Shown here piece after piece: positions 17,861 through 64,000 of a stretch of DNA of 64,000 nt. Positions within the stretch are counted from its first letter, which is position 1. Each line of letters starts with the position of its first letter. The position numbers and the translations under genes were made by a program. Location of the stretch: contig JAYWIR010000028.1 in assembly GCA_036172245.1 (NCBI GenBank), forward strand, positions 1,302,001 through 1,366,000, in the 5' to 3' direction. This DNA is from Raillietiella orientalis (lineage: Eukaryota). The notes beneath the pieces are model-generated. The model had not been told where the DNA came from and searched no databases. It worked only from the letters and a program-made list of their open reading frames with translations.

Positions 17861-20729
17861 CGAGGAAACAGTGGGAGTAGTAGGAGGAAACAAACCCCCT
17901 CATGGGAGAAGGCTGCGTCCTTCGAAGCAGGAAATCTGATCAACGGGATGAGCGCCATCTTCCGCCCACATCTCCGAGGAACTAGTCCAAGCGAAAGGAA
18001 GAGTACGAAAGGAATAGTTGAGGACCAAAACGACGACATACCCTCCGTATAAAACCGAACCCTCAAGCGATCCCACTTCCACTTCTCACCCATCCAGTCA
18101 TAGGAATCTGAATCCCTGCATCCAGCCTCGCCTCAACCAACCAGACCAAATCCTCCGTCCTCCCCTAACCGAATGGCGGATACCTACGAAAGAACATTAG
18201 CATACAACACGGAGACGGCGAACGAAGGACCACAACTGACCACGCAGACTACTCCATCCATCCAAAATTTTTCCTTTCCCATGATGCCCGCCCGCACTGC
18301 ACATTGCCCGGCAACGCACTCAGCTAAGACCTCGGTTCCTTTGTGCAATTCTTCATGCGATCAGCGCCCCGGCGTGACCGAGCAACCACAACGGACATTC
18401 CTCCAGAGAAACACCACGCACATTGAAGTAGATTCGCGTGCCGCCAAGTAGCCAAGGCGACCGTTTCCCGGAGGGGCGGCGAAACGGTCCTCCTCCACGG
18501 ACAGCATTCTCACCCCGATCACAGCTGCGATCCGTCTGCATCGCAAAGACCCTCTTCTGTTGAATCGATCCATCTACACACGCACCACACCGAAACGAAC
18601 ATGCAGCCTCCTGGTCTCCACAGAAACCCCATCGGCAACACGGCAATGCGACCTCCTTGTCCCGTCCACTGTCTCGCTACACGCGACAGCGAAGCAGCCT
18701 CCCCCCCTCCTTGGACACAATCGCCAAAGGAGAGGTCATTTTCCACACGAAAAGCTTCCTACCCTCGGGGGGAAGATGGCGCGCGTCGCACGGATGGCAC
18801 AGCCTGGTGCTGCTTGCAAGCAAGCAGTCGCGCCTCCTCATCGGGACGAAGAGGTCTCTGGAGTCTGCCCAAAAGGCGGAGGCAACTCCCCACACCCGCC
18901 GATCCACCGCCGGAAAGGGGCAAGAAAGGAAAGCTACGAAAAAGCCCGCCGACAGCCACGATCATTCCCCTGACTCGGAGGCGAGCGCGGGCGCATCCCA
19001 GCATCCCAGCATGGGGAGCGTCCTCCCGAGAGGGGCCAAGGAACCGTGGCAACCGCCGTTGCAGGGCACCGTCCGGGGCGAAGGTCTTCCCCTTCAATGG
19101 CGAAAACAACGCCGCACGGCACCGGAAAATCAACCGGGAGTGGGCGTGCCGCGGAGGGCATCGCTGCGAGAAAGCCACCGAGGCGAAGGGCGACAGGGAG
19201 AATTCGGGAAAGTCCGAAACCTATCGCATCCCGGAAGGAAACCCAGGAGGAAGAGGGGAAGGAGCAAAAGCACAACGCAACCTCCTCTGTGCTCGCCCGC
19301 GTGCGGGACCGCGTCGGTAATACCTGGCCGGGAGGCAGGAGGGCGCAGGGGTCGGATCACGAAATGACAAGAGGGCCGACCTCTCGCGCACCCATTCTCC
19401 AATCCCTGCAAGGGAGAACGCGACCAGCACTCCGCGCCGCCCCTGGCGCCACTCGACGCCCCCGGAGAGAGGAGCAGCACCAGGAGTATCTCGAGCACCA
19501 GCGTGGAAGCAGTGGCACAACGCCGCGGGGTGCGCGCGCAAACAGCCTGCGGGGGCGCAACCACACGCGGCCGTGGCCATAAACGCGACCTTCTTTTTGG
19601 GAGCTGAGGTCACCGAACAGCGAGACCGCGGCCGGTCCGCATGCAAACGGACCAACACCTACGCCGACTGGCCCTCGCACCACCCGGAAAGAAAGAACGA
19701 AGCCCTTCTGGGTGCTCACATGGTGGTCACCCTGTACCCGCGGGCATCCCAGATGGCATTCCCGACGTGAAGCGCATCGTAAACCCTCCGCAGCCTTGAT
19801 CGTCCCCGTCCCTTCCCGACAGACAAACGTCCCCTGCCCCTCAGACCCGCGGAGTACCTGCCGACCCAATTGTTCGCCTCGGAAACGCGCCTCCGAGGGC
19901 GCCGTCGCGTCCCGGGCGCGGAGGTCCTGCTGCAGCTCCCCTGCCTTACGCGGCTGTCCGCGGAACACCTCGCCCGCGCAGGTCGCACGCGCCAAGCGAA
20001 AGAGGCGCCACTTCCGAGCCTGCACTCGGGTCGAGGCAGGCCGACCGAGATCGGCCCATGCGCAAGAGGGAAGCGAGGCGAGCACGCGAGAAAAAGGAGA
20101 CGACTGGATGGGCGCAATCTGTGCAGACGCCTCCGTGACGGGCGCGTGCGCACGGAGAAGACGGGCAGGCGAGCGGCGCCCCACGGCGCTGCTGGAGTCG
20201 AACGAGCAGGAGAACGGAGGCGGCCGGAAGCACCACCACCACCACGAAAACAGCCGACGGGACGAAGATAAGCGCGCCTCCGCATTCCCGCCCGCTCGCC
20301 CAGCAGAAGAGGAGAGACCGAAGACCAGGAGCAGCGTTCCCGAGCCTCTCCAGGACGGTCCCGTCCCATCCGTTCATTGTCCTGACGCTTCCCCGATTCC
20401 CCCCTCCCCTCTCCCGTCGTCCCTCCATTCATCCCTCCGAGATGAGCTCGCAGATACACGCCGCACAACTAGACGCGACGGGCGTAGGTGCCCATTGTCT
20501 GGCCCCGTGCCTTTGTTGCCCAATTCGAGGTCGGCGCCGGGGGACGACCGTCGACTCGCACAAAGGCGGTGCTCTGCGCGCAGTCCAATCGCTCGCGCGC
20601 GGAAGGAGGGGCGACCGACCTGCCAGCGCCCCGCTCCAACCGCTGGCGGACGAGGATGCGCGGCGCTCGAAAAGGCGCCGCGTGCCCGCAAGAAACGCCC
20701 GCGGCCAGCATCGAAGACGGCGGCGCCAG

Positions 20730-20870
20730 GCGCCAGGCTGCGGAGTTCAGCGAGAGCTCCTGGTCTCCCCCTGGCTCTACTTCTCTCTCCATCGAGCGCC
20801 CAGGGCGCCGTTTTTTCTCTGAAAGCGTCGAAAACGCACGCGGATCGCACCCCGGGAGAAAGGTTCGGCG
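20730..20870 (+). mobile_element. APE endonuclease-like LINE fragment (mirror at about 62445-62585, minus strand)
   Basis: FSESSWSPPGSTSLSIERPGRRFFSESVENARG resembles SETWLxP...PGYxFF...RGGG. Confidence 0.35.
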
Positions 20871-21899
20871 CGCCAATCCAGCCAGCGGGATGACACGCAG
20901 CAACGGGCGTTTTCGACCAAGTCTGCGTGTGCAGCCGCGCTTCGAGGAGCGCACCCGGCGTACAGAAGCTGACGGGAAGGCGGCAAGCGAACGTGCGCAC
21001 GCACGGGAGGAAAGGGCGCACGCGTCCCCCTTCCTCCCGCTCGCCGGGAGCTCTCGGGAGCAGTTGCTTGCACTCAAGAGCGCGCCGGTGCACTTCGCGA
21101 ACGCTCGCGCAGGCGCAGGCCGCCGCCAGCCGACCGCTTCCAGTGGCCGTGGGAGTGCGACCTCCGCTGCGCTTCTCTTCGCCCGCCAAACAATGGGCGT
21201 CGCCGACCGCGATCGGCGCGCTTGTCAGGCGCATCGCCCGACAAGAGTGGTCCGGCTGTCAGCGCAGACAATCCGCTGCTCCAGAGCTATCTGACGAGCA
21301 CCGCACGTCCGCTCATTATCTGCACTCGTTAGCGGGGGCGCCGCTGCCTGCCTGACTCGGCAGAATCCTCGCCCGCCTGCAAGGACCCGCAAGGTCACCG
21401 CGAGCGGCGACCACCTCGGCCTCCGGCCCGGACTTCGGACAAGCACGGCCTCAAAGGTCGCGCCGCCTCCCCTGCCAACCCTTCCTCCGCACGGAGGAGC
21501 ACAACCGCCGCCGCTCGGCGTCCGCAACCAAGCGAGCTCCGTCTGCGTCACGGCAGTCGCGAGCGCCATCAGACAGCGCGCTGCTCCTCCAGCTGGCGCC
21601 GTCTGAGACCACCCCTTCCATCGAACGGAAGATCCGCTCAAACGCAGACGGCCCTTCCGGAGTGTCTCCGACGCGTCCTCGGTCGCGCGGGCCAACCACT
21701 CCCTCCGACGAGCGGGCACGCCGTTACCGCAACGGCCGTTGGCGCGCCCTCCGCGTGCCTGCCCATGCCGAGCGCGGCGTACTCGACGCCTGTCCGCAGG
21801 AAGCCCTTCCGCGGCGAAAGACTGAAGGACGCATGCGCTGCGCCGGGGGTCGGCACCCAACGCGCGCACCCCTTCTTCCGTGCTCCGCCTACAGTCCTC

Positions 21900-24700
21900 G
21901 TGCGGTATGGCATCCTCGAAAAGTCGCATCCTCCGATCGCTCTCGCGGGCACGATCCTCACCAGACGGGTCGACTCGGGAGTCGCCGTCACCTTGGCAGG
22001 TGCCACTCGCGACCTCGGCGATCGTACGCCCTCAATCAATATTCCCGGCTTCCTGGAAACGCGGCAGCTATTCCTGCAGATCCGCCTGTCCGATCCAGCC
22101 TCCGGGCTTCCGCCTAAAGCGGCATCCAAACCAGCGGCGCGGAGGTGGACTTCCCGCGTACCATGCAAGGCCGTCGTCTTCCGGCGGTCGCCGCACCTGA
22201 AAAAAGAGCACCCTCTGGTGCTCGATGGACGCTGGGAAGCAAACACTCAAGGATCGGGAAAAACGCGTGACGGCGGCTTTCGGACGTCGGATGATCTTTC
22301 GGAGAATTCCACCTCGGGCGTCCTTGCCGGAGACGAAAGACGGAAGACGCGTTCGGACACCCCAACTCCCGTGTCGCACCAGCGTGCTGGCGGCTGTGAG
22401 CGAGGGCGATCTCGGAACCAGCACGCCTTGCATCCTTCGTCATCCTTCCTGTAGATTCCCTCTTCAAGCTTGAATCGGCGAGGAATCCCAGGCAGGAAAA
22501 GGGCAAGGAGTTTACGGCTGGTCATCGGTCCACAATTTGACTACTCCTGATCGTCGAGACTGGAGTGGGGGGAGGCTTTAGAGTTTCTCCAGAACGGACG
22601 CTCTTCGAAATCGTGCCTTCCTTTTCGACGAAAGTCACCTCTCCTGTCGTCTCTCGGCTGCCGCGCGTCCTGTTGCTCTCCCAAGGTACTCAGAACGCAC
22701 AACCAGATGCCAACGCCTTTCGGGAGTCGAGAGGGTGGAGCCAGCCTCTCCCTCTGTACCTGAACCGTTACCGAGAACGCAGCCGAGGAAATGAGCCATC
22801 CCTCGCTTCCTCCTGCTCCCGCCTTCGCTCCGAACTCGCTCTGCGGACGGGTTGGCCCAATGCTCCCGATGTTTCCACGCGTCCTCCGTGCTCTCCACCT
22901 CGGCCGTCGCGGTAGCTCGTCTCCTCCGCTTCCTCCGCTGCCGCGGTGCTGCTGGTGGGCGACTCCTTGGAGTGCATTCCCTCTTACTTATCTCCCACAG
23001 ACACCACGAGCATCGTCGTCACCCATGGACGACAACGGAAGGTACAAGGAGAGCGGTTGCAATGCAGAAGAGTTCGCAGTGGCTGGGCGCACGGTCGCAC
23101 GCGTGCGGCTGGCTCGGCGCTCGGTTCCCTGGAGTCACCAGCCACCCCACTGGTCGCCTCGAGGGAGGCCTCCGCTCTTGCGGACTCTACTGATGACGAT
23201 CTTCAGGAAGGACCGAAGAACTTCGCTCCCAAGCAGTGGGGAACGCATGGGTGCGTCCCAAGACTTGGGCTGCTCGGCCTCGTGGCCGCCGGCGAAGTGC
23301 TGGCAACTATGCTTTCGCGCAGCCGCTTGACCAACGAACACTCATGCACGTTTGCATCCCCACTTCGGTGCGTGACTTTCGCGAGACGACACGGTCCGTG
23401 GACCTCCTGGTGCCTGCCGGTCAACTCCAACACCTGGCGGCTGCAGACAGTGAACACCAGAATGCAAGTCACCGAGGACCCCACGAAAATCGTCGCCGGC
23501 GGCCAACCGAGGAAATCGGGCCGCATCAACGTCGAAAGGACGGTGGAAGAAATGAAAAAGTGGCTCCCTGAGGCAGCGATGTCCCCCGTTTCGGAACAGC
23601 GTGGCACCTGCCCAGCTGCGAGGTAGGAGGACTTCGTCGAACGGGAGAAGAGGGAGAAGGGTCCCTTGGTGGCAGCTCCTTGCACCACCTGGTCGACGAA
23701 GCAGACTCACCTGGTGCTCCATCCGAAGAACCTGCTCGCTGGCAGCGCCTCCCGAAAATTCCGAAGGAACAAACACGTACGTGAAGATCCCGAAATCCTC
23801 TTCCGCACCCTCCGGGGGAAGGCGCCAACAGTGACGGCGAATACAGCCCCGGCGCCGAAGAGGGAATCGAAAGCAAGGAAGCGAGCGAGCATTTGCACGT
23901 CGATTCTCACGTGCAGGCGTCGAGCCTCCTTCGCAACCGGTCCGCGCATGCTGATGAGTGCAGAGACCACGTGGGGACGCAGAGGCGGCCGTCGGTAGAA
24001 ACGCGCGTGGACACTCGCATCTCGCGGACGGTTACCGGGACGCGCCAGGGAAGGCGTGAGAGCGCCGGAGGATCGGTGAGCCTGCAAGCCCGTGCAATAG
24101 GACTGTCCCGCAAGAAACCGAACGCTGCGGGAAGAAAGGGAACGCCAAGGGCGAAAGAGGGAGGACGACAGGCAGTGAACGGCACCCCCTCCCTCCTCAT
24201 TCTCGACAGATTCGGATGGCATCTCTGCGGGCGATCCACTCCTCGCGACGTCGCTGCTGTCGAGGCTATGCCGGCGCGCATGCCCAGCACACATGGCGCG
24301 CCGCTAGAGGACTGCACACTCTTTCCCTCGTGCCCGCGGGGCGATGGCGGCTGCAGGCGCTTTCCACCCCGTTGCCCTGTACCATGCTCTCCACCAGCTG
24401 GCGTACATTCGACAAGCGTGCGCCCTATAGCATCCGAGGGTGCCATCCAGGAAGACCGCTGCGTGTTTGTAGGACAATCCCGCCTGCTCCGAGACGACTG
24501 CAGCTCGGTGAACGGAGCGTCACGCCGTCGACGTCCCTTACACGAACGAACGGCGCCCGCACACTTGCCCGGCTCCACGGCCCACCGGCTGGAAGAAACA
24601 CTTTCCCTTCAGCTCCATTCCCGCTCCTGCGTGCACATCCTCCACTTTGACGGGGTTTGAGATGATGTCGTGCGCTCCTGAGGCGGCTTCCCAGGGGAGC
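21900..24700 (+). mobile_element. GC-shifted Ty3/Gypsy pol relic (protease-RT-RNase H-integrase N-terminus), left-arm copy
   Basis: Protease VDSGVAVTL (21969) with downstream PLVLDGRW (cf. PLILGxDW). RT IVPSFSTKVTSPVV (SPVV at 22640), QPLP and MDD (23025-23033). Connection ASPLR...WTSWC (23354-23413) and DPTK. RNase H-like ERE and HPKNL. Integrase N-terminal-like DRFGW (24205-24219). The PR-RT-RH-IN order is that of Ty3/Gypsy. No LTRs recognised. Confidence 0.68.
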
Positions 24701-24949
24701 AAAGCGGCGTGCCGTGACACTTGCACACCATCCCCCTCACGGAGAAGGCGACCCTGCGTTTCGCCAGAAAAAGGTGCGCTCGCGGAGCCGTCAGCATCCG
24801 ATGGATGACGCTGTCCCACCTCGCCGCCTTGCGCAAGTGTTCGTCGCCCGTCTTCCCACTTTCGCCACAGACGAGCGCGGAGCGGTTCCTTGCGGGACGT
24901 TCGTCCGCGCATTCGGCGCGCGTCTTTTCCTCTTCCCGTCGCTCCGTCA

Positions 24950-27900
24950 TTCAGCGCGCAAACGCCGCCCAGCGAGAGGGTGTTGCAAGTGGACCGTGGC
25001 CTTTCCGCGCAAAGCGACCACCTCCCGCCCTCTCTGCGCCAGCATCCGCGGCATCCCCCTCTCGTCCAGAGGCAGACGTGGGAAGACGAGACGGATCAAA
25101 GGGCGCGCGCATCGTCCCGGACCGGGAGCAGCGGTCGGGAAGGCAGCCAGCGTTCCCGGTGGGCAGGCGTAAACTTGGGGTGCTGCCCGTTCGTGCGTGC
25201 CGCCCCATCGCCCTCCACTAGTCCGACGCGCTCGCGGTGCGGCGCGCCTCATTTATTCGCGTGAGTTGCGATTTCTCGCGTGTGACCGAGCGCCCCTCCA
25301 GAATGCGCACGCAACGCCAGCAGCGTACGCGGAGGAGCCGCACGAAGGCCGCGCGCTCCCTCACGGATGAGCGGGCGCAACCCTTCCGAAGATGGGACGG
25401 CACTTGACTCGCTCGTGGGCACGCGCCCTTCGACTGTAGTCGCATCGCGGTCCACACGCAGGAGAAATACCTTCCCGCGGGATGAGTCCGCACGTGGATG
25501 CAACCTTCGACGACCCAAACGCCACCGACACAGCTGCCCTCCGAAACACCGCAAATCGCTGGCACTCGCGTGGAGGGAACGCACGACCACCATCCGGGTG
25601 TGCAGCGGGAACGCTTGCGCGGTGGCTCTATCCGTTGAGGAGGTCTTCCGCCATGAGGCAGCGCGTTTCGAGTGCGAGCGCGAGGGTGGGAGAAGGAGGG
25701 GTCCGCCTAAGAAGGGTCGCCCCCAGCATGTATGGCGGCGATTGCAACCGCAACGCAAGGCCGAATGGGGAATGGAAAGCCGCCAGCGCGGCAAGTGGAC
25801 GAAGCTGCCGCCACGAGGGCCTCCCTATCGCGCTGTCCGCCTACTCGTGGGGAAGGCGAACAGTCCGTTCCCCGCCCACTCCTCTCCTTTCGCGTTCAAG
25901 TGCGTGCGCCCCTCCAAAACGAAGCGAAAGGGGCAAGATGCCCCTGATTGCTCCTCGCGCTCAGGCAACATGGCGGGAGGCAGCCGTCGCTCCTCGCCCT
26001 TCCTGCGCGGAAAGGCCCGTCATCTTGAGAATGCGCACATTCGGGACGCGGCCCCTGCGTGGGCCCGAAATGTCCGCCAATGCAGGCGGACGAACCTCTC
26101 CGGCAGGGAGGAAGGCGGGCACACAGCTTGGCCCTACGCCAGCGACAAAGGTTAACGGCGACTTGCTCGATGCGCAACGACGCCCACGGTGGAGCTGCGC
26201 AGCGTGATGTCACTACGACTGCCGTAGATCGACACCCCCACCGGCGTGGAGACCCGACAATTCGCGTGTCCGCGAGCTCCCCGACTGCACGCCCTGGGGA
26301 AGATCCCCCTTACGAGACAGAGAGGAGATGCGGCTCCCCTTCGGCTGCGAGGAGTCGCGCAGTCGCGTCCCGCCCGGTAGACGCGCTCCGGTTTCCCGGG
26401 GGATCCGAGAAGAGCATGCCCACACGCTGCTTGAAACACGACAACGCGTGAGCAGACATCGCCGCTGGGCATCCTTCGCTACCAGCGGGGGCGCCTTTCC
26501 TGTTCGGCAGTCCCGCGCTGCCGCTCGTGTGCGCTGCTCCCCTTCACCGTGCACACTTCTTCGGAAGAGCCTTCGGAAAGGGGGCACTCCCACGCTCGGC
26601 TTCGGGTTTGGGAGACGCGTGCTTCCCAGGACGAGGGAGTTCCTGGAAAAACCACATGCGCTGAATAAGCTGGCGAAGGAGAAAGAACGGGTGGGCCACG
26701 CCCCGCTCAGTTTCCCCCCTCTCCGCCTTCCCTTCCCGACACTGCAAAGAGATACCCTATCCCCTGCGCACGAAAAGCAGCCCACAAACTAACCACGGGT
26801 AGTCCCAAAAAGGGATGACGATGTCCACCACAGAGGCGTGGGTCTTCCTGGAGTCGCACGGTTTGTTCGCACGCTCGCTCGCCCGTTCCCCTGCTCGGAC
26901 GACTCGCGGCTCGTGGTCGCGACTGCCACAAGCGCACGAGCGCAAGCGTCAAGTTGTCCGTCGGCAAAAGGCGCAGCGCGAGAGGGTTTCCAGGGGAACG
27001 TGTGCGATCTCTCGCCTCGGACCCCCCGCCGGAAGCACGCGTCTTCCCGTCGTAGCGACGGCTGCACGCGCTGCGACGCGCGCAACGGCGCGCTTGCCGC
27101 TCTTCGCCCAAGCCAAACGCGCGCGCCAAGCTGCCCTTCCAGGCAAGTCCGCACGCGCCTGCGCAGCGGTGCTGCGCCCGCGAGCTTCCTCGGAACGGCG
27201 CCTCACCGTCACGCGCGCACGTGCAGGCCGAGGAGGCAACGCCACGGTAGGGCACGCAACTCGGACGCGCGTGCGTGCGGCCATAAGTGCATGAGTGCAG
27301 TGCAACGGCGTCGACGACGACCGTTCCCAGCGTATCCTGGGAACGGAAAATGCGGAAAACGGAACCGACAAACGCATGCGTAAAACTTGTGCACTTCTCG
27401 CGCGCACGCGCGTGCGCGAAAGACGGGCTTTTGCGTTGCCAGGCTTGCGCACGGATTGTCGGTTGCCGCCGCTCGGGAACAGGCTCCGAAGAGCGCGTTC
27501 CCGGTCTCCCGCCGGCCTAGGAGGAAACGCGCACGTTTCCGGCGGGGGCAGCTTCAGGCCAGCGGGGCGAGGGAAAGCGCGCTGGGATGACCGCTGCCGC
27601 CGGCGAGAGCGCGCGTCTCCGGACGGTGCTCGAGCAGCCCCAGAGGCACCCGTCCGCCAGTAGGCGGGAAGTTGTGTTGTTGGGGACGCAGCACAGGGCA
27701 GTCGGCGCGAGAGGTGTCGCGATTGTTCCGGGAGACCCCCGCCAGGGTCGCCTCGACAATATTTTGACAGCCTGCGGGCGGCCCATTGTGTTTCTGTCCC
27801 CGCCCGAAATCGGGGCGGCCCATTGTGAGGCAGCCGACTCGCGTTGCAGATCCCGCGTGAAAAGCATCGCACCACTTTGGCGACCGCCGACGGCGACCCG

Positions 27901-28150
27901 CGCAAACCGTCGGCCGCCAGTACGGTGGCGCTGCGGAACACGTCCAGGCAACGGCGGCAGCGCGTCCACCGGCAGGGCGTGGCGCCTGCAGCACTGCAGC
28001 GGCACGCAGCCGCTGCAGGCACGACCGCCGTGCACCTTCGACGCCTTCCTCGAGGATGATGCATTCGGCGACCGTAACCCGGAGGAGAGTCTCCCGTTCC
28101 CAAGCGCAGTGCGTCCGCGCTTTCGAAGTGCGCCGCTCTCCACTCCAACA
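24950..28150 (+). mobile_element. GC-shifted CR1-like LINE ORF2 relic, left-arm copy
   Basis: APE end GTALDSLVGTRPS (25403, cf. LDLxxTNxP). RT start TLLRKSLRKGGTP...VLPR (26568, cf. LFNxSLxxGxxP..PLPK). SGAAPASFLG (27165, cf. SGVPQGSxLG). C-terminal ILTACGRPIVFLSPP (27779, cf. YxAxVRPILEYxxP) and GTQPLQARP (cf. LGLQPLxxRR). Confidence 0.6.
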
Positions 28151-28629
28151 CCACAAGCGTTACGCCGGACCCTCGACCGCTGGCTCCTCCCGTGAAGAAG
28201 ACGGTCGCAGCGAACGCAGACGCCTTGAGCCGGCGCCGGCGTCTCCGACGGTCCCATTTCGCCTGGCGCGCGGCTCACCACGAGCAGACTGCGCTTCCGC
28301 ATGGGACATACGGCAGGCAGGAGGCATGCGGTTTCGCTCCATAGCGCCCACTGCTCGGTGCGAAGGGAGGCCGGCCGCAAACAGCGATTCTCCTTCTGCA
28401 GCGCCAATCGACCATCTGGCGTTCGCCACTCGGCCCTGCCCCCTTCGACCACAGCGGCCTTGGCGCGGATACGCGCCAATCCGGAAGACGCAACGCTTAT
28501 CCCGTTCGCGTTTTGCCCCGAACTCTTCCACGGGTACCGAAACTCCGCTGTCTCTTCCCCTGCGTCGTGCTGGAAGACGCTCCCCCCTGCTGTGGCGGGA
28601 GGAAACACGCCCTGAAGCAGTCCCCTGGG

Positions 28630-29500: not shown

Positions 29501-30139
29501 GCCGAGATGGTTCGGCAAGGCGGGCGGTGACGCGAAGAAGCCCTGACTGTTTCCTCCCGCTCCCGCGCAAGTCGCCGTAGTCTCGTGTGAACCTTGGTCG
29601 TCGTCTATAGCGAGCGTTGCTCTACGAAAAAGCGCAGAGGTAGCCCTGAAGGGAAAGGATGGCGTTGCGGCTGCTGGCGTGCGGCGGCTCGGCCAGCGTC
29701 CAGACGACGGTCAGCGTACATCGCCGAAAGGACAGCCCGAGAAGTGAATCAGACGGAAACCGCCGCACCGGCTACGGTTTGGGCGGTGCATCACTCCCAC
29801 CTGGCAGGAGACTTTCCAGCTTCGCGCTCGAAAACGTTCGGGGAATCGGGAGAAGCCGCTGCCAGGCGACAGGGCAACGGCCCCTTCCGACCTGCTCGCC
29901 TGGCTGGCTGAGTGCTTGCAGCTGACGCGGAACCGGGAGCGTGCCAGGCTAGGGAAGCCACCGCCGGACACGTCCCCTATCTTCACGGTACGCGCGCGCG
30001 CTGTCCACCTCCCGCAGGGAGCAGAAAGCGCAAGCGCGGGAGGTACTCCCCGAGCTGGGCGACAGGGAACGGTGGGGCGAAGGAAGAAGCTTGCTCCGTT
30101 CTTTTCTGCTGCTGAACACGCCCAACCCGCGTGACCTTT

Positions 30140-47232: not shown

Positions 47233-47499
47233 CAAACAGGACCTCTGTTTTCCCCCCTCGAGCACTCGCTCAGACATCGACAGACACCCAGAGACCATGC
47301 AGCCCGAGCACGTGCGTCACGGGACAAAATTCCACCCGGCGACAACACCATGCATACAGAAAAGTGCATGCCGTCGTTCAGGGAGAAACCAAAACACTCA
47401 CACTGCGATGCTGCTGCCGGCAAACGCGCAGCCTTTCCGATGAGGTCCGTCACCGCAAATGCCAGCGACGCCACCAAGCAGCATGGCCTTCCATCATGC

Positions 47500-50950: not shown

Positions 50951-53900
50951 ATCCCGCGCCGGCAGCTCGGCCCCGACTCGAGCCGGCTTGCTCGCTGCCG
51001 CCCTTGCCCGCTTCAGCATCTCCACCCACCGTCACCGCAGCTTTGCGCCTCTCGCGCACGCAGGCGCGAGCAACGCTTGCGCACGACCGCCGCCGTTCGA
51101 TGATCGCGGCGCAGGAAAACGCGTTCCCAGGGAACGATGTCGCTGCTCCTGTCGTGACCGATGGGGCGCGTCCTTAGCCGCCGACGGTTCGGAAGCGATC
51201 TGAAAACCAGACGACGACGACGTTCCGTCGGATGGGTGCCAGCCGGCGGTCTCTTCTCGGAGGAACAGGAGGCTTCCGCGGTGCCACAGCACTGGTGGGG
51301 TCGCGTGGGAGAGAGGGGAAGTAGCGATTTTGAATTGCGAGGCGAGGAACCGCGGAAGGAGGCAGACGCGTCGCAGGCAGACGAGTTGCCTGGACGACGA
51401 GTCTCGTGCCTTCCGAGAGACGCCGCGCAAGAACCGACGGCGCGCTCCTCCCGTGCAATTCCGCTTATCGGACAGACCGTGGAGGTCACCCGGTGACAGC
51501 CGCGGCGATTCCCGCAAGAGGGTTGTGGGGTCGAAGCTCTTTTTACGCTTCCTTCCTCATCCTCGTACGCTGCCCGCTGGCTACGTCCCCGATGCGGACA
51601 CTCGTCCCTTCACTGAATAGGATCGGGACACGGCAAGTCCCTTTGGCGGGAATGCACAGACGAACGCTGTCCGCAAGCGGATACGCGAAGGAGCGTCGAG
51701 CAACATCCCAGCCGGCACACCACGCTCTCGAGGCAGGAGAAAAGTAGGATGGAGGAGTAGGATGAAACTCTTCGAAGGCGTCCCAGGACGAGAGGACGTC
51801 GCCTTCGGACGGCTTCCTGTGCATCCTGGGATCCACCCATCCGCCCCCGGACAAGAAGCGCACTGAGCCTTCTGTGGGCGATACGGTGTCGAGCGCTGCC
51901 TTCGTTGCGGGTGAGGCGGAACAAAAAGGCGTCTGGGAGCAGCGGGCAGCACGCGACGGACTTGCTTTTCCGTTCCACTTGATGAGATCGCACCCGCAGG
52001 ATGTGCGCAGGGGCGAGGCATACCTCTTCGCTCCCGCGGAGCGTCCCGGCCTTTACCTGGCGGCCGCTTCCTCGGCGGGAGACCGGTCAGACGCGCGTGC
52101 TGCGGCGCTTGGCTCGGTTCTTCCCCCCCCCTCCGGTTGTCTCTGGGCGCTAAGGATGCGAGCGGGTTCTGCGCCAGGCGCGACGCACCTTCTCCAATTC
52201 TTTGGCACATGGCCGCGGGAAGCTCTCGCGTGTGACGCAGCACGCGCTCTCCACGTTGTTCCCAGTTTCGATGGGGAGACTTTCTGATGCGGCGCGTGCT
52301 GCAGGTGGAACGGGAGGCGGCCGTCGCGAGCCTCAACTCTTGATTGTCCCGCACGCGCCACCGGTTCCTGTCCGGCATGCACACGGTCATGCGGAGAAGC
52401 CTTCTGGATTGCGGTTGCCCTTTCTGTTTGCCTGGGGCACCTCGGGGGAAAGGAATGGGGCAGAACGGGGGCTGGTTCGGGAGCACGTCAGCGGGAAGAC
52501 GTGCTCCTCTTGCGGGTTGGGACGAGGGATGAGGATTGGCGCCTGCGGAAAAGGCAACGCGCGCGCCCGTTGCTGGGAAACCGAGGAGCGGAGAGAACAC
52601 GGAGGCCCCACGGCTTCTGCGGGGCGACCTCGAAGCAGGGCTCAGCGCGTCCCGCTCGCCACAGAGGCTTTGGCCAGGAGCAATCGGCTGCACGGCGGCG
52701 TCCCGAGAGGCAAAGCACAGGGCTTCACGGGAGGGTGGCTGTCTGCAGGCGAAAATCTACGCTTGGTTTCCGCCGTCTGCGAAGCTCCCGTTTCTTCACT
52801 GCTCGTCGGTCCTGCGTCCTGCGCTTCCCTTCAGAGCGCATCCGCGACGCCTCTCGACATCCGTCACTTCGAGACGGTGGCGGCAGCGACCACCGTCTCG
52901 AAGTCCAGCGGAGGCGGCGCTTCTGGGAGTGTGCGGATTTGTTGCTTGGATGCGTTTCTTCTTGGTGGGGTTCCGGGAAGCGAGCAAGAGTTGCGCGACT
53001 GCTCGTTCTTGTTGAGACGCTTGGGAAACGGAGTTCCCACGCCTGGCGGCGTAGCCCCAAGCGCAGCGTGCATGCACGGGAGACCTCAGGAGCATTTTCT
53101 CGCGCCCTCCGCGGAGTCCAGCAGCTAAAGGTCACGCGGGTTGGGCGTGTTCAGCAGCAGAAAAGAACGGAGCAAGCTTCTTCCTTCGCCCCACTGTTCC
53201 CTGTCGCCCAGCTCGGGGAGTACCTCCCGCGCTTGCGCTTTCTGCTCCCTGCGGGAGGTGGACAGCGCGCGCGCGTACCGTGAAGATAGGGGACGTGTCC
53301 GGCGGTGGCTTCCCTAGCCTGGCACGCTCCCGGTTCCGCGTCAGCTGCAAGCACTCAGCCAGCCAGGCGAGCAGGTCGGAAGGGGCCGTTGCCCTGTCGC
53401 CTGGCAGCGGCTTCTCCCGATTCCCCGAACGTTTTCGAGCGCGAAGCTGGAAAGTCTCCTGCCAGGTGGGAGTGATGCACCGCCCAAACCGTAGCCGGTG
53501 CGGCGGTTTCCGTCTGATTCACTTCTCGGGCTGTCCTTTCGGCGATGTACGCTGACCGTCGTCTGGACGCTGGCCGAGGCGCCGCACGCCAGCAGCCGCA
53601 ACGCCAGCCTTTCCCTTCAGGGCTACCTCTGCGCTTTTTCGTAGAGCAACGCTCGCTATAGACGACGACCAAGGTTCACACGAGACTACGGCGACTTGCG
53701 CGGGAGCGGGAGGAAACAGTCAGGGCTTCTTCGCGTCACCGCCCGCCTTGCCGAACCATCTCGGCACGAGTTGGGAGGTGGAAGGAGGGAGGACGGCGCA
53801 CCGCTCAAGTTCCGATCCGGTTTCACCTTGGTAGGGCTCACGGACTGAATATCCGCGTCCTCTCGCCGTCCCGAAGACGAGCGGATGACGATGGAGATGG

Positions 53901-55115
53901 CGTCCCTGTTCCGAAGAGGTGCTCTCCGATGGGCTGCGGTGGTTTCTTCGTCGCCGCAGAAAGGCGCTCTTCGTTGCGCTCGCGTGATGGTGCTCGTCGC
54001 GGCAGAGCCGTCGCGCGGTGCCTCGGGACACCTTTCTCGTCTGCCAAGTTCGCTACCCACGTTTCCCACCGCCTAGGAGCGGGTGATGTAACGCGCAGAC
54101 CGTGTTCAGGGAGCTAGTCCTTCGTCTAGACGGGGGACCTGGGTTGGAGGGGAAGAAAGTGGTCCCCCCTATTTCGAGTCGCTAATGGTGGTTCGGAGCT
54201 TGCGCAGCCGCCCTCCATCTCCTTCCCTTCCGACGGCTGATTCCGGCATCTTCTGCGCGTTCGTTTCAACGACGCTGCTTTCCAAGGTGGGCAGGTGTCC
54301 GTACTCTCGAAGAGAAGGAAGCTATCCCGCTCTTCGCAGATAGGTGAGGTTTGCCTAGCGGGAACGTTGGTGCTCGAGGTGATCGTCCGGGCCTGAGATA
54401 CACCTTGTTCTCCCGGGGCGCGATCGCCTGCCGGGGGCGAGTCAGCGGTCCGATGGACGCCGGGCGCCACACTTTTGCGCGAGGCAGCTTCAGCTCCAGG
54501 GTTGGCTTCTTTCGGGACGAGGGGACACGTGGCAAATGCAGGTACGTACCCGGACGGAAGGCGCCTCCACACGGCAGCGGACGGAAGCGGAGGGACCGCT
54601 GCTTCTGCGTTCGCTGGCACGGGGTGCGACGACAATCCCAGGGGACTGCTTCAGGGCGTGTTTCCTCCCGCCACAGCAGGGGGGAGCGTCTTCCAGCACG
54701 ACGCAGGGGAAGAGACAGCGGAGTTTCGGTACCCGTGGAAGAGTTCGGGGCAAAACGCGAACGGGATAAGCGTTGCGTCTTCCGGATTGGCGCGTATCCG
54801 CGCCAAGGCCGCTGTGGTCGAAGGGGGCAGGGCCGAGTGGCGAACGCCAGATGGTCGATTGGCGCTGCAGAAGGAGAATGGCTGTTTGCGGCCGGCCTCC
54901 CTTCGCACCGAGCAGTGGGCGCTATGGAGCGAAACCGCATGCCTCCTGCCTGCCGTATGTCCCATGCGGAAGCGCAGTCTGCTCGTGGTGAGCCGCGCGC
55001 CAGGCGAAATGGGACCGTCGGAGACGCCGGCGCCGGCTCAAGGCGTCTGCGTTCGCTGCGACCGTCTTCTTCACGGGAGGAGCCAGCGGTCGAGGGTCCG
55101 GCGTAACGCTTGTGG

Positions 55116-58100
55116 TGTTGGAGTGGAGAGCGGCGCACTTCGAAAGCGCGGACGCACTGCGCGGGCGCGCCGCCGCCAGGCTGCACGCCCGTTTTCACAC
55201 TGGCGGGCGCATGGGAACGGGAGACTCTCCTCCGGGTTACGGTCGCCGAATGCATCATCCTCGAGGAAGGCGTCGAAGGTGCACGGCGGTCGTGCCTGCA
55301 GCGGCTGCGTGCCGCTGCAGTGCTGCAGGCGCCACGCCCTGCCGGTGGACGCGCTGCCGCCGTTGCCTGGACGTGTTCCGCAGCGCCACCGTACTGGCGG
55401 CCGACGGTTTGCGCGGGTCGCCGTCGGCGGTCGCCAAAGTGGTGCGATGCTTTTCACGCGGGATCTGCAACGCGAGTCGGCTGCCTCACAATGGGCCGCC
55501 CCGATTTCGGGCGGGGACAGAAACACAATGGGCCGCCCGCAGGCTGTCAAAATATTGTCGAGGCGACCCTGGCGGGGGTCTCCCGGAACAATCGCGACAC
55601 CTCTCGCGCCGACTGCCCTGTGCTGCGTCCCCAACAACACAACTTCCCGCCTACTGGCGGACGGGTGCCTCTGGGGCTGCTCGAGCACCGTCCGGAGACG
55701 CGCGCTCTCGCCGGCGGCAGCGGTCATCCCAGCGCGCTTTCCCTCGCCCCGCTGGCCTGAAGCTGCCCCCGCCGGAAACGTGCGCGTTTCCTCCTAGGCC
55801 GGCGGGAGACCGGGAACGCGCTCTTCGGAGCCTGTTCCCGAGCGGCGGCAACCGACAATCCGTGCGCAAGCCTGGCAACGCAAAAGCCCGTCTTTCGCGC
55901 ACGCGCGTGCGCGCGAGAAGTGCACAAGTTTTACGCATGCGTTTGTCGGTTCCGTTTTCCGCATTTTCCGTTCCCAGGATACGCTGGGAACGGTCGTCGT
56001 CGACGCCGTTGCACTGCACTCATGCACTTATGGCCGCACGCACGCGCGTCCGAGTTGCGTGCCCTACCGTGGCGTTGCCTCCTCGGCCTGCACGTGCGCG
56101 CGTGACGGTGAGGCGGCGTTCCGAGGAAGCTCGCGGGCGCAGCACCGCTGCGCAGGCGCGTGCGGACTTGCCTGGAAGGGCAGCTTGGCGCGCGTGTTTG
56201 GCTTGGGCGAAGAGCGGCAAGCGCGCCGTTGCGCGCGTCGCAGCGCGTGCAGCCGTCGCTACGACGGGAAGACGCGTGCTTCCGGCGGGGGGTCCGAGGC
56301 GAGAGATCGCACACGTTCCCCTGGAAACCCTCTCGCGCTGCGCCTTTTGCCGACGGACAACTTGACGCTTGCGCTCGTGCGCTTGTGGCAGTCGCGACCA
56401 CGAGCCGCGAGTCGTCCGAGCAGGGGAACGGGCGAGTGAGCGTGCGAACAAACCGTGCGACTCCAGGAAGACCCACGCCTCTGTGGTGGACATCGTCATC
56501 CCTTTTTGGGACTACCCGTGGTTAGTTTGTGGGCTGCTTTTCGTGCGCAGGGGATAGGGTATCTCTTGTGCAGTGTCGGGAAGGGAAGGCGGAGAGGGGG
56601 GAAACTGAGCGGGGCGTGGCCCACCCGTTCTTTCTCCTTCGCCAGCTTATTCAGCGCATGTGGTTTTTCCAGGAACTCCCTCGTCCTGGGAAGCACGCGT
56701 CTCCCAAACCCGAAGCCGAGCGTGGGAGTGCCCCCTTTCCGAAGGCTCTTCCGAAGAAGTGTGCACGGTGAAGGGGAGCAGCGCACACGAGCGGCAGCGC
56801 GGGACTGCCGAACAGGAAAGGCGCCCCCGCTGGTAGCGAAGGATGCCCAGCGGCGATGTCTGCTCACGCGTTGTCGTGTTTCAAGCAGCGTGTGGGCATG
56901 CTCTTCTCGGATCCCCCGGGAAACCGGAGCGCGTCTACCGGGCGGGACGCGACTGCGCGACTCCTCGCAGCCGAAGGGGAGCCGCATCTCCTCTCTGTCT
57001 CGTAAGGGGGATCTTCCCCAGGGCGTGCAGTCGGGGAGCTCGCGGACACGCGAATTGTCGGGTCTCCACGCCGGTGGGGGTGTCGATCTACGGCAGTCGT
57101 AGTGACATCACGCTGCGCAGCTCCACCGTGGGCGTCGTTGCGCATCGAGCAAGTCGCCGTTAACCTTTGTCGCTGGCGTAGGGCCAAGCTGTGTGCCCGC
57201 CTTCCTCCCTGCCGGAGAGGTTCGTCCGCCTGCATTGGCGGACATTTCGGGCCCACGCAGGGGCCGCGTCCCGAATGTGCGCATTCTCAAGACGACGGGC
57301 CTTTCCGCGCAGGAAGGGCGAGGAGCGACGGCTGCCTCCCGCCATGTTGCCTGAGCGCGAGGAGCAATCAGGGGCATCTTGCCCCTTTCGCTTCGTTTTG
57401 GAGGGGCGCACGCACTTGAACGCGAAAGGAGAGGAGTGGGCGGGGAACGGACTGTTCGCCTTCCCCACGAGTAGGCGGACAGCGCGATAGGGAGGCCCTC
57501 GTGGCGGCAGCTTCGTCCACTTGCCGCGCTGGCGGCTTTCCATTCCCCATTCGGCCGTGCGTTGCGGTTGCAATCGCCGCCATACATGCTGGGGGCGACC
57601 CTTCTTAGGCGGACCCCTCCTTCTCCCACCCTCGCGCTCGCACTCGAAACGCGCTGCCTCATGGCGGAAGACCTCCTCAACGGATAGAGCCACCGCGCAA
57701 GCGTTCCCGCTGCACACCCGGATGGTGGTCGTGCGTTCCCTCCACGCGAGTGCCAGCGATTTGCGGTGTTTCGGAGGGCAGCTGTGTCGGTGGCGTTTGG
57801 GTCGTCGAAGGTTGCATCCACGTGCGGACTCATCCCGCGGGAAGGTATTTCTCCTGCGTGTGGACCGCGATGCGACTACAGTCGAAGGGCGCGTGCCCAC
57901 GAGCGAGTCAAGTGCCGTCCCATCTTCGGAAGGGTTGCGCCCGCTCATCCGTGAGGGAGCGCGCGGCCTTCGTGCGGCTCCTCCGCGTACGCTGCTGGCG
58001 TTGCGTGCGCATTCTGGAGGGGCGCTCGGTCACACGCGAGAAATCGCAACTCACGCGAATAAATGAGGCGCGCCGCACCGCGAGCGCGTCGGACTAGTGG

Positions 58101-58365
58101 AGGGCGATGGGGCGGCACGCACGAACGGGCAGCACCCCAAGTTTACGCCTGCCCACCGGGAACGCTGGCTGCCTTCCCGACCGCTGCTCCCGGTCCGGGA
58201 CGATGCGCGCGCCCTTTGATCCGTCTCGTCTTCCCACGTCTGCCTCTGGACGAGAGGGGGATGCCGCGGATGCTGGCGCAGAGAGGGCGGGAGGTGGTCG
58301 CTTTGCGCGGAAAGGCCACGGTCCACTTGCAACACCCTCTCGCTGGGCGGCGTTTGCGCGCTGAA
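55116..58365 (-). mobile_element. Right-arm copy of the CR1-like ORF2 relic (retains an extra 48 bp)
   Basis: Mirror of 24950-28150. Confidence 0.6.
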
Positions 58366-58614
58366 TGACGGAGCGACGGGAAGAGGAAAAGACGCGCGCC
58401 GAATGCGCGGACGAACGTCCCGCAAGGAACCGCTCCGCGCTCGTCTGTGGCGAAAGTGGGAAGACGGGCGACGAACACTTGCGCAAGGCGGCGAGGTGGG
58501 ACAGCGTCATCCATCGGATGCTGACGGCTCCGCGAGCGCACCTTTTTCTGGCGAAACGCAGGGTCGCCTTCTCCGTGAGGGGGATGGTGTGCAAGTGTCA
58601 CGGCACGCCGCTTT

Positions 58615-61415
58615 GCTCCCCTGGGAAGCCGCCTCAGGAGCGCACGACATCATCTCAAACCCCGTCAAAGTGGAGGATGTGCACGCAGGAGCGGGAATGG
58701 AGCTGAAGGGAAAGTGTTTCTTCCAGCCGGTGGGCCGTGGAGCCGGGCAAGTGTGCGGGCGCCGTTCGTTCGTGTAAGGGACGTCGACGGCGTGACGCTC
58801 CGTTCACCGAGCTGCAGTCGTCTCGGAGCAGGCGGGATTGTCCTACAAACACGCAGCGGTCTTCCTGGATGGCACCCTCGGATGCTATAGGGCGCACGCT
58901 TGTCGAATGTACGCCAGCTGGTGGAGAGCATGGTACAGGGCAACGGGGTGGAAAGCGCCTGCAGCCGCCATCGCCCCGCGGGCACGAGGGAAAGAGTGTG
59001 CAGTCCTCTAGCGGCGCGCCATGTGTGCTGGGCATGCGCGCCGGCATAGCCTCGACAGCAGCGACGTCGCGAGGAGTGGATCGCCCGCAGAGATGCCATC
59101 CGAATCTGTCGAGAATGAGGAGGGAGGGGGTGCCGTTCACTGCCTGTCGTCCTCCCTCTTTCGCCCTTGGCGTTCCCTTTCTTCCCGCAGCGTTCGGTTT
59201 CTTGCGGGACAGTCCTATTGCACGGGCTTGCAGGCTCACCGATCCTCCGGCGCTCTCACGCCTTCCCTGGCGCGTCCCGGTAACCGTCCGCGAGATGCGA
59301 GTGTCCACGCGCGTTTCTACCGACGGCCGCCTCTGCGTCCCCACGTGGTCTCTGCACTCATCAGCATGCGCGGACCGGTTGCGAAGGAGGCTCGACGCCT
59401 GCACGTGAGAATCGACGTGCAAATGCTCGCTCGCTTCCTTGCTTTCGATTCCCTCTTCGGCGCCGGGGCTGTATTCGCCGTCACTGTTGGCGCCTTCCCC
59501 CGGAGGGTGCGGAAGAGGATTTCGGGATCTTCACGTACGTGTTTGTTCCTTCGGAATTTTCGGGAGGCGCTGCCAGCGAGCAGGTTCTTCGGATGGAGCA
59601 CCAGGTGAGTCTGCTTCGTCGACCAGGTGGTGCAAGGAGCTGCCACCAAGGGACCCTTCTCCCTCTTCTCCCGTTCGACGAAGTCCTCCTACCTCGCAGC
59701 TGGGCAGGTGCCACGCTGTTCCGAAACGGGGGACATCGCTGCCTCAGGGAGCCACTTTTTCATTTCTTCCACCGTCCTTTCGACGTTGATGCGGCCCGAT
59801 TTCCTCGGTTGGCCGCCGGCGACGATTTTCGTGGGGTCCTCGGTGACTTGCATTCTGGTGTTCACTGTCTGCAGCCGCCAGGTGTTGGAGTTGACCGGCA
59901 GGCACCAGGAGGTCCACGGACCGTGTCGTCTCGCGAAAGTCACGCACCGAAGTGGGGATGCAAACGTGCATGAGTGTTCGTGGGTCAAGCGGCTGCGCGA
60001 AAGCATAGTTGCCAGCACTTCGCCGGCGGCCACGAGGCCGAGCAGCCCAAGTCTTGGGACGCACCCATGCGTTCCCCACTGCTTGGGAGCGAAGTTCTTC
60101 GGTCCTTCCTGAAGATCGTCATCGGTAGAGTCCGCAAGAGCGGAGGCCTCCCTCGAGGCGACCAGTGGGGTGGCTGGTGACGCCAGGGAACCGAGCGCCG
60201 AGCCAGCCGCACGCGTGCGACCGTGCACCCAGCCACTGCGAACTCTTCTGCATTGCAACCGCTCTCCTTGTACCTTCCGTTGTCGTCCATGGGTGACGAC
60301 GATGCTCGTGGTGTCTGTGGGAGATAAGTAAGAGGGAATGCACTCCAAGGAGTCGCCCACCAGCAGCACCGCGGCAGCGGAGGAAGCGGAGGAGACGAGC
60401 TACCGCGACGGCCGAGGTGGAGAGCACGGGGGACGCGTGGAAACATCGGGAGCATTGGGCCAACCCGTCCGCAGAGCGAGTTCGGAGCGAAGGCGGGAGC
60501 AGGAGGAAGCGAGGGATGGCTCATTTCCTCGGCTGCGTTCTCGGTAACGGTTCAGGTACAGAGGGAGAGGCTGGCTCCACCCTCTCGACTCCCGAAAGGC
60601 GTTGACATCTGGTTGTGCGTTCTTAGTACCTTGGGAGAGCAACAGGACGCGCGGCAGCCGAGAGACGACAGGAGAGGTGACTTTCGTCGAAAAGGAAGGC
60701 ACGATTTCGAAGAGCGTCCGTTCTGGAGAAACTCTAAAGCCTCCCCCCACTCCAGTCTCGACGATCAGGAGTAGTCAAATTGTGGACCGATGACCAGCCG
60801 TAAACTCCTTGCCCTTTTCCTGCCTGGGATTCCTCGCCGATTCAAGCTTGAAGAGGGAATCTACAGGAAGGATGACGAAGGATGCAAGGCGTGCTGGTTC
60901 CGAGATCGCCCTCGCTCACAGCCGCCAGCACGCGGGTGCGACACGGGAGTTGGGGTGTCCGAACGCGTCTTCCGTCTTTCGTCTCCGGCAAGGACGCCCG
61001 AGGTGGAATTCTCCGAAAGATCATCCGACGTCCGAAAGCCGCCGTCACGCGTTTTTCCCGATCCTTGAGTGTTTGCTTCCCAGCGTCCATCGAGCACCAG
61101 AGGGTGCTCTTTTTTCAGGTGCGGCGACCGCCGGAAGACGACGGCCTTGCATGGAACGCGGGAAGTCCACCTCCGCGCCGCTGGTTTGGATGCCGCTTTA
61201 GGCGAACGCCCGGAGGCTGGATCGGACAGGCGGATCTGCAGGAATAGTTGCCGCGTTTCCAGGAAGCCGGGAATATTGATTGAGGGCGTACGATCGCCGA
61301 GGTCGCGAGTGGCTCCTGCCAAGGTGACGGCGACTCCCGAGTCGACCCGTCTGGTGAGGATCGTGCCCGCGAGAGCGACCGGAGGATGCGACTTTTCGAG
61401 GATGCCATACCGCAC
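58615..61415 (-). mobile_element. Right-arm copy of the Gypsy pol relic
   Basis: Mirror of 21900-24700 (ORFs 60861-61550, 60400-60750, 59689-60369 and 58655-59422). Confidence 0.68.
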
Positions 61416-64000
61416 GAGGACTGTAGGCGGAGCACGGAAGAAGGGGTGCGCGCGTTGGGTGCCGACCCCCGGCGCAGCGCATGCGTCCTTCAGTCTTTCG
61501 CCGCGGAAGGGCTTCCTGCGGACAGGCGTCGAGGACGCCGCGCTCGGCATGGGCAGGCACGCGGAGGGCGCGCCAACGGCCGTTGCGGTAACGGCGTGCC
61601 CGCTCGTCGGAGGGAGTGGTTGGCCCGCGCGACCGAGGACGCGTCGGAGACACTCCGGAAGGGCCGTCTGCGTTTGCGCGGATCTTCCGTTCGCTGGAAG
61701 GGGTGGTCTCAGACGGCGCCAGCTGGAGGAGCAGCGCGCTGTCTGATGGCGCTCGCGACTGCCGTGACGCAGACGGAGCTCGCTTGGTTGCGGACGCCGA
61801 GCGGCGGCGGTTGTGCTCCTCCGTGCGGAGGAAGGGTTGGCAGGGGAGGCGGCGCGACCTTTGAGGCCGTGCTTGTCCGAAGTCCGGGCCGGAGGCCGAG
61901 GTGGTCGCCGCTCGCGGTGACCTTGCGGGTCCTTGCAGGCGGGCGAGGATTCTGCCGAGTCAGGCAGGCAGCGGCGCCCCCGCTAACGAGTGCAGATAAT
62001 GAGCGGACGTGCGGTGCTCGTCAGATAGCTCTGGAGCAGCGGTTTGTCTGCGCTGACAGCCGGACCACTCTTGTCGGGCGATGCGCCTGACAAGCGCGCC
62101 GATCGCGGTCGGCGACGCCCATTGTTTGGCGGGCGAAGAGAAGCGCAGCGGAGGTCGCACTCCCACGGCCACTGGAAGCGGTCGGCTGGCGGCGGCCTGC
62201 GCCTGCGCGAGCGTTCGCGAAGTGCACCGGCGCGCTCTTGAGTGCAAGCAACTGCTCCCGAGAGCTCCCGGCGAGCGGGAGGAAGGGGGACGCGTGCGCC
62301 CTTTCCTCCCGTGCGTGCGCACGTTCGCTTGCCGCCTTCCCGTCAGCTTCTGTACGCCGGGTGCGCTCCTCGAAGCGCGGCTGCACACGCAGACTTGGTC
62401 GAAAACGCCCGTTGCTGCGTGTCATCCCGCTGGCTGGATTGGCGCGCCGAACCTTTCTCCCGGGGTGCGATCCGCGTGCGTTTTCGACGCTTTCAGAGAA
62501 AAAACGGCGCCCTGGGCGCTCGATGGAGAGAGAAGTAGAGCCAGGGGGAGACCAGGAGCTCTCGCTGAACTCCGCAGCCTGGCGCCTGGCGCCGCCGTCT
62601 TCGATGCTGGCCGCGGGCGTTTCTTGCGGGCACGCGGCGCCTTTTCGAGCGCCGCGCATCCTCGTCCGCCAGCGGTTGGAGCGGGGCGCTGGCAGGTCGG
62701 TCGCCCCTCCTTCCGCGCGCGAGCGATTGGACTGCGCGCAGAGCACCGCCTTTGTGCGAGTCGACGGTCGTCCCCCGGCGCCGACCTCGAATTGGGCAAC
62801 AAAGGCACGGGGCCAGACAATGGGCACCTACGCCCGTCGCGTCTAGTTGTGCGGCGTGTATCTGCGAGCTCATCTCGGAGGGATGAATGGAGGGACGACG
62901 GGAGAGGGGAGGGGGGAATCGGGGAAGCGTCAGGACAATGAACGGATGGGACGGGACCGTCCTGGAGAGGCTCGGGAACGCTGCTCCTGGTCTTCGGTCT
63001 CTCCTCTTCTGCTGGGCGAGCGGGCGGGAATGCGGAGGCGCGCTTATCTTCGTCCCGTCGGCTGTTTTCGTGGTGGTGGTGGTGCTTCCGGCCGCCTCCG
63101 TTCTCCTGCTCGTTCGACTCCAGCAGCGCCGTGGGGCGCCGCTCGCCTGCCCGTCTTCTCCGTGCGCACGCGCCCGTCACGGAGGCGTCTGCACAGATTG
63201 CGCCCATCCAGTCGTCTCCTTTTTCTCGCGTGCTCGCCTCGCTTCCCTCTTGCGCATGGGCCGATCTCGGTCGGCCTGCCTCGACCCGAGTGCAGGCTCG
63301 GAAGTGGCGCCTCTTTCGCTTGGCGCGTGCGACCTGCGCGGGCGAGGTGTTCCGCGGACAGCCGCGTAAGGCAGGGGAGCTGCAGCAGGACCTCCGCGCC
63401 CGGGACGCGACGGCGCCCTCGGAGGCGCGTTTCCGAGGCGAACAATTGGGTCGGCAGGTACTCCGCGGGTCTGAGGGGCAGGGGACGTTTGTCTGTCGGG
63501 AAGGGACGGGGACGATCAAGGCTGCGGAGGGTTTACGATGCGCTTCACGTCGGGAATGCCATCTGGGATGCCCGCGGGTACAGGGTGACCACCATGTGAG
63601 CACCCAGAAGGGCTTCGTTCTTTCTTTCCGGGTGGTGCGAGGGCCAGTCGGCGTAGGTGTTGGTCCGTTTGCATGCGGACCGGCCGCGGTCTCGCTGTTC
63701 GGTGACCTCAGCTCCCAAAAAGAAGGTCGCGTTTATGGCCACGGCCGCGTGTGGTTGCGCCCCCGCAGGCTGTTTGCGCGCGCACCCCGCGGCGTTGTGC
63801 CACTGCTTCCACGCTGGTGCTCGAGATACTCCTGGTGCTGCTCCTCTCTCCGGGGGCGTCGAGTGGCGCCAGGGGCGGCGCGGAGTGCTGGTCGCGTTCT
63901 CCCTTGCAGGGATTGGAGAATGGGTGCGCGAGAGGTCGGCCCTCTTGTCATTTCGTGATCCGACCCCTGCGCCCTCCTGCCTCCCGGCCAGGTATTACCG

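Follow-up and report, generated by a model that had tools for sequence, protein, structure and literature searches.

An inverted repeat with arms of at least 18 kb around a unique 8.74-kb spacer: a probable palindromic segmental duplication in Raillietiella orientalis

Contig JAYWIR010000028.1 of Raillietiella orientalis (assembly GCA_036172245.1) carries a giant, near-identical inverted repeat in the 64,000-bp stretch at positions 1,302,001 to 1,366,000 of its forward strand (the window, numbered here from its first base). The left arm at 19315-37264 (17,950 bp) is the reverse complement of the right arm at 46005-64000 (17,996 bp), and between them lies a spacer of 8,740 bp at 37265-46004. 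As read from the sequence, this arrangement probably represents a genuine segmental duplication of the palindromic (inverted) type in a eukaryotic chromosome, with arms of at least 18 kb, and probably more, placed around 8.74 kb of single-copy spacer. Chance does not account for an inverted match of 17.9 kb. That the palindrome exists in the organism beyond the assembly, that it arose by fold-back and that gene conversion has acted between its arms are inferences. The palindrome belongs to an already known kind of structure, of which it is a new instance.

The inverted repeat and the differences between its arms

A repeat search of the window returned four collinear inverted blocks, which jointly span 19315-37264 and 46005-64000. 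BLASTN resolves the same pairing into two high-scoring segment pairs: 28104-37264 against 55162-46005, with 99.804% identity over 9,161 columns and 15 mismatches, and 19315-28107 against 64000-55207, with 99.716% identity over 8,794 columns and 24 mismatches. In the MAFFT alignment of the arms, 39 substitutions are accompanied by 52 columns of insertion or deletion (indel) in four events, and the divergence of the arms is 0.22% (39 substitutions in 17,950 bp). The four events comprise a 1-bp indel at 26746/56568, a 48-bp segment of the right arm (55164-55211) that the left arm lacks, a 1-bp indel at 31135 within a run of G10/G9, and a 2-bp indel (CC) at 37212-37213. An inverted pairing of these two intervals around an 8.7-kb spacer, with 35-40 substitutions and four indels, had been described in a first-pass annotation of this DNA; the repeat search, BLASTN and MAFFT all recover the pairing, and each indel lies within 1-2 bases of the place given for it there.

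Position 19315 has as its partner base 64000, with which the window ends, and therefore the apparent start of the left arm is set by the window and is not a structural boundary. The outer limit of the visible left arm is thus imposed by the window's end, at which the right arm is truncated. The arms measure at least 18 kb and may extend outward across the left flank. Within the window the spacer is unique, matching nothing else except for an internal 44-bp hairpin, and the whole window consists of A, C, G and T, with no undetermined base (N).

The differences between the arms are over-dispersed. The ratio of variance to mean per kb is 2.94, and 18 of the 39 substitutions fall within 2,062 bp (21272-23333; mirror 59982-62043); each of these values was matched in 0 of 5,000 simulations. 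On the outward side of this cluster 1,957 bp are identical, and the longest gap free of differences reaches 3,709 bp (P = 0.004). Such patchiness is what patchy arm-to-arm gene conversion would give; uneven mutation or allelic variation would give it too. Transitions and transversions between the arms stand at 15:24. Furthermore, the left arm carries A/T where the right carries G/C at 21 sites, and the reverse is found at 10 (P = 0.07). Neither the transition ratio nor this asymmetry is decisive.

The arms differ by 39 substitutions as against 4 indels, of which only one lies in a homopolymer. The 48-bp segment at 55164-55211 is non-tandem, shows GCGC at both edges and adjoins a substitution, and it has the character of a biological deletion or insertion. 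With substitutions outnumbering indels in this way, a single homopolymeric event and a 48-bp indel that is not tandem, two distinct DNA copies must therefore have been sequenced. Sequencing noise on one molecule was rejected as a source of the differences, since it would consist mostly of homopolymer indels.

At the inner edge, the last 53 bp of the left arm (37212-37264) are paired with 51 bp of the right arm (46005-46055), from which they differ by the 2-bp indel and one substitution. This segment is about 94% identical and holds 2 of the 43 difference events (P = 0.007), and the next 3,665 bp outward hold 0 (P = 0.00015), both values being post hoc and calculated under a uniform rate. The pattern suggests that the innermost 53 bp may derive from a short inverted repeat that was already present and from which copying in the backward direction was primed; alternatively, conversion may have been weaker at the edge of the arms. 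The two ends of the spacer share no residual similarity above that of shuffled sequences, and none extends from the arms into the spacer.

Base composition and the case for a real duplication

The proportion of guanine plus cytosine (GC) is 64.7% in the left arm, 64.8% in the right arm and 44.0% in the spacer, and in the left flank it is 49.3% at 1-10,000 and 56.5% at 10,001-19,314. Both inner edges coincide with a step. On the left, GC falls from 54.7% in the last kb of the arm to 41.9% in the first kb of the spacer, and on the right it rises from 46.4% in the spacer to 54.6% in the arm. No compositional break occurs at 19315, around which consecutive 500-bp bins have values of 0.604, 0.654 and 0.672. 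The CpG observed/expected ratio is 0.74-1.05 in the flank and spacer and 1.06-1.22 across most of the arms. A common dinucleotide signature runs through arm, spacer and flank, with AC/GT low, GA/TC high and TpA at 0.35-0.52 of expectation. As this signature is the same in all three, the GC-rich arms are native and not foreign DNA.

On the plus strand, from about 17.5 to about 31 kb, A exceeds T and C exceeds G, and the A/T skew is reversed (T over A) at about 32-36 kb. The strand asymmetry spans 19315-36000 and is mirrored in the right arm. It could arise from divergent transcription or from a switch in replication within each arm.

Under the proposed origin, a broken, resected end or a stalled fork would have paired through a short, imperfect inverted repeat (about 50 bp) that now makes up the innermost part of the arms. 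The paired end would then have copied the adjacent DNA backwards, the loop being left as the spacer. Point mutations and small indels would later have accumulated up to the present divergence, and gene conversion between the arms would then have erased differences in patches. Such conversion, if GC-biased and old, may also have raised the GC of the arms. The innermost 1.5 kb of the arms, at 54-60% GC, are compatible both with old conversion and with the duplication of a domain that was already GC-rich.

Several points weigh against a real duplication of this origin. The palindrome is known here from assembled sequence; the outer ends of the arms lie beyond the window, and the full shape of the structure is not visible. 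The GC step may simply be the edge of the duplication at an existing compositional boundary, and the comparison of the innermost 53 bp was picked after inspection of the data. In many taxa, natural variation shows a higher ratio of transitions to transversions than 15:24. Moreover, a patchy divergence of 0.2% is equally expected from two alleles of one locus.

The last of these points is central to the chief alternative, an assembly artefact in which two haplotypes of one single-copy region were threaded in opposite directions into one contig through the spacer, by way of a heterozygous spacer inversion or of chimeric long reads. We rate this explanation as possible, on the unlikely side. Allelic variation fits the 0.22% divergence and its patchiness just as well, and the palindrome reaches the window's end with no true outer boundary in sight, as it would in a mirrored contig. 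A precedent is provided by the linked, palindromic homologous blocks in an early assembly of a bdelloid rotifer, for which the available part of PMC5916493 discusses a possible assembly artefact. However, the window contains no N gap, and a unique, non-palindromic spacer of 8.7 kb would need either read support at both junctions or a heterozygous inversion with exact breakpoints. Mis-threading would likewise not be expected to concentrate differences in the innermost 53 bp or to place GC steps exactly at the arm edges; these two features lean towards a real structure, though both could be chance.

Simpler artefacts were also considered. A fold-back read chimera, arising from a missed adapter or an amplification palindrome, is excluded by the 8,740 bp of unique and non-palindromic spacer, together with 39 substitutions and a 48-bp indel that is not tandem. 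In the case of a haplotig joined by scaffolding, exclusion follows from the lack of an N gap.

If the duplication is real, it offers a fully sequenced, clean palindrome with base-level inner junctions, in a genome without CpG depletion, and its arms differ from the spacer in GC to an unusual degree. It would bear on the origin of large palindromes, with the innermost 53 bp perhaps representing a fold-back seed, and on how far GC-biased conversion can shape composition without a gene under selection. If it is an artefact, a mis-threaded contig adjoins a possible developmental gene, and a false duplication would enter any annotation.

Genes, repeats and neighbouring sequence

The window holds 219 stop-to-stop open reading frames (ORFs) of at least 130 amino acids (aa), and the Pfam scan took the 135 that start before 46,500; the 84 right-arm ORFs of at least 130 aa and the arm ORFs of 60-74 aa lay outside the Pfam scans. 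None of the 135 scored above the curated cut-offs, and the matches beneath them were Antimicrobial_5 (16.5 bits), zn-ribbon_14 (16.2 bits) and APH (19.5 bits). In addition, 79 arm ORFs of 75-129 aa matched 0 families. Among the arm ORFs scanned there was no Pfam match to a reverse transcriptase, integrase, endonuclease or gag protein. Three-base periodicity is absent from the arms; the only interval with a value above 6 is a 33-bp tandem repeat. Neither tandem nor dispersed repeats were found in the arms. Across the entire window, Rfam returned 0 matches at the gathering score; for 1-46,100, a search with E up to 0.1 also gave 0. No transfer RNA (tRNA) genes were found. A 40-nt probe from the arm had no exact match in metagenome contigs or viral contigs.

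Long ORFs of up to 592 aa in the arms were rejected as genes, as stops are depleted about twofold on both strands and the amino-acid composition is unlike that of proteins. The frequency of stop trinucleotides per position is 0.0138 on one strand and 0.0103 on the other, versus 0.025 expected. They are scarce because TpA is rare, and therefore ORFs of 300-590 aa arise without coding. The TpA observed/expected ratio is 0.35 in the arms and 0.43-0.52 elsewhere, and CpG is at or above expectation.

To judge from these scans, the visible arms appear to be without a recognisable gene. This agrees with the first-pass annotation, in which the arms were said to hold no intact gene. Its further description of the arms as retroelement debris is not supported: the arm ORFs scanned matched no retroelement Pfam family, no repeats were found in the arms, and poly(A)-tailed pieces are found only in the spacer and the left flank. 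As the searches revealed neither a gene nor an RNA in the visible arms, the palindrome is best read as structural, that is, as a substrate for inversion of the spacer and further rearrangement, and not as a gene-carrying amplicon.

The same searches bear on the reading of the structure as a mobile element, or as an integrated virus, whose terminal or internal inverted repeats are very long, such as a giant transposon with terminal inverted repeats or a herpes-like unique-short region between inverted repeats. The geometry alone would fit, with long inverted repeats around a shorter unique core. However, no transposase, integrase, polymerase, capsid or other Pfam family was detected in the ORFs scanned. 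Three-base periodicity is missing, the dinucleotide signature is that of the flank, and the one 40-nt probe found no exact partner in viral contigs. We consider such an element extremely improbable.

A functional inverted-repeat module, that is, a centromere of the inverted-repeat type or an invertible flip-flop segment, is highly improbable as well. Inverted-repeat centromeres, in which an AT-richer core lies between identical inverted repeats, occur in fission yeast and in some Candida and Komagataella species. The present locus resembles them in placing a unique 8.7-kb core of lower GC between GC-rich, near-identical inverted repeats, the whole being gene-free. Yet neither tRNA genes nor repeat families were found, an exon-like ORF with a lead towards a metazoan-style transcription factor lies 2.4 kb away, and nothing ties the locus to a kinetochore or recombinase function.

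Within the spacer, the internal hairpin corresponds to a 44-bp inverted repeat at 39412-39455 that is 91% self-complementary. Tracts of A18-A22 follow unique sequence at 41560-41672 and 43800-44140, in the manner of poly(A)-tailed retroposons, and tracts of the same kind occur in the left flank at 2327-2377 and 12940-12981. The 55 spacer ORFs of 60-129 aa matched 0 Pfam families. Two adjacent ORFs at 42198-42770 on the minus strand have the most protein-like amino-acid make-up in the window; in their motifs they may resemble a decayed endonuclease of a long interspersed nuclear element. One of them, at 42198-42482 (minus strand), had no Pfam match and no homolog in a homology search.

The left flank at 10001-19314 is of intermediate GC and may be a continuation of the arm; from the GC profile, we would guess the outer arm edge near 10,000-11,000. 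At 16600-16935, on the minus strand, lies an exon-like ORF of 112 aa (MSSVIS...SPFAIQQLLGL...NDVS), which ends at a donor-like GTAAGG site and may itself lie within the palindrome. The 208-aa stop-to-stop frame around it has a GC of 0.73 at third codon positions versus 0.56 at the other two, and the strongest three-base periodicity in the window is found in this region. Its FAIQQLLGL segment may resemble the eh1/octapeptide motif of homeobox factors. In a protein atlas the nearest clusters were 'Empty spiracles homeobox 2' (0.88), the Hox9 N-terminal domain (0.80) and Nkx-6.3 (0.77), all of which are leads only, beneath the trust line of 0.9. Neither this ORF nor the 135 flank ORFs of 60-129 aa had a match in Pfam, and a word-based homology search among longer proteins returned no homolog for the exon-like ORF.

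The call of a homeobox gene at 16600-16935 is thus a weak lead. The homeodomain helix-3 motif (WFxNxR/K) is absent from all six frames of the window, and the homeodomain exons, if the call is right, would lie outside it. The claim that the arms start 1-2 kb upstream of a homeobox gene is misleading on both counts, 19315 being an artefact of the window and no homeodomain lying in the window. Meanwhile, tandem arrays are present in the left flank at 16130-16217 (33 bp, 2.7 copies) and at 13559-13705 (35 bp, 4.2 copies), and relatives of the 35-bp array also occur at 11129-11200.

Taken jointly, these features could describe a palindrome that is old, lacks genes and lies outside the setting of mammalian sex chromosomes, and whose arms GC-biased conversion between them would have brought to a GC of about 65%, roughly 20 points higher than in the spacer. 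The arms would extend to about 10,000, and the exon-like gene at 16.6-16.9 kb, possibly of homeobox type, would be present as two inverted copies placed head to head. That all of these parts hold together is doubtful in our estimation. The arm GC of about 65% is close to an equilibrium of about 61%, a figure which is itself only extrapolated for primate X palindromes.

Comparison with known palindromes and inverted duplications

Large palindromes are defined, in the available part of PMC8327919, by arms longer than 8 kb, identity above 99% and less than 500 kb between the arms. The present arms are at least 17,950 bp long, with 99.72%/99.80% identity and a spacer of 8,740 bp, and thus lie within all three limits; in these structural terms, the likeness to large sex-chromosome palindromes drawn in the first-pass annotation is upheld. 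As far as the accessible sections of PMC8327919 and PMC8981503 report, primate X and Y palindromes have spacers from 77 bp to 358 kb and an average within-species arm divergence below 0.2%, and protein-coding genes are found in the arms of 21 of the 26 palindromes on the human X. In primate X palindromes the arms are also richer in GC than the flanks, with 46.3% versus 41.2% in human (PMC8981503, excerpt). The present structure is similar to these in its inverted repeats of more than 8 kb and above 99% identity around a unique spacer, in arms that are GC-richer than the neighbouring unique sequence, and in a patchy identity compatible with arm-to-arm gene conversion. There are also differences. 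Genes, which most human X palindromes carry in their arms, were not found in the arms scanned here; the GC excess is about 20 points compared with about 5; and the divergence of 0.22% stands against an average below 0.2%. Furthermore, CpG is not depleted here (observed/expected 1.1-1.2), and therefore the genome is not of the mammalian type.

In human non-recurrent inverted duplications, as set out in the available portion of PMC3907307, a resected end folds back and pairs with itself through a short inverted homology, and the loop becomes a single-copy spacer. These spacers measure 766-70,466 bp with a median of 3,428 bp, 20 of 21 being shorter than 15 kb, and the junctions show 2-8 bp of homology in 13 of 21 cases and inverted repeats of about 300 bp with about 90% identity in 3 of 21. 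The present palindrome likewise consists of inverted copies around a kilobase-size spacer, which is single-copy in the window, and its innermost 53-bp segment, with an identity of about 94%, is comparable with those repeats of about 300 bp. Unlike it, the human cases described in that excerpt arose de novo in patients and are terminal and of megabase scale. The palindrome studied here looks fixed, or at least old enough to have acquired 39 substitutions, and its distal end lies out of view.

The palindromic blocks of the bdelloid rotifer, in the passages available from PMC5916493, are also near-identical inverted copies on one record, for which the question of an artefact was raised. They differ in being palindromes of gene order on gapped short-read scaffolds, whereas the present sequence is continuous, without N, and has sharp junctions at the base level. 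In addition, a palindromic segmental duplication on mouse chromosome 12 (PMC13688818, available part) is of megabase scale, in contrast to the structure described here, which it resembles in its central spacer; the mouse case is itself an example from outside the sex chromosomes.

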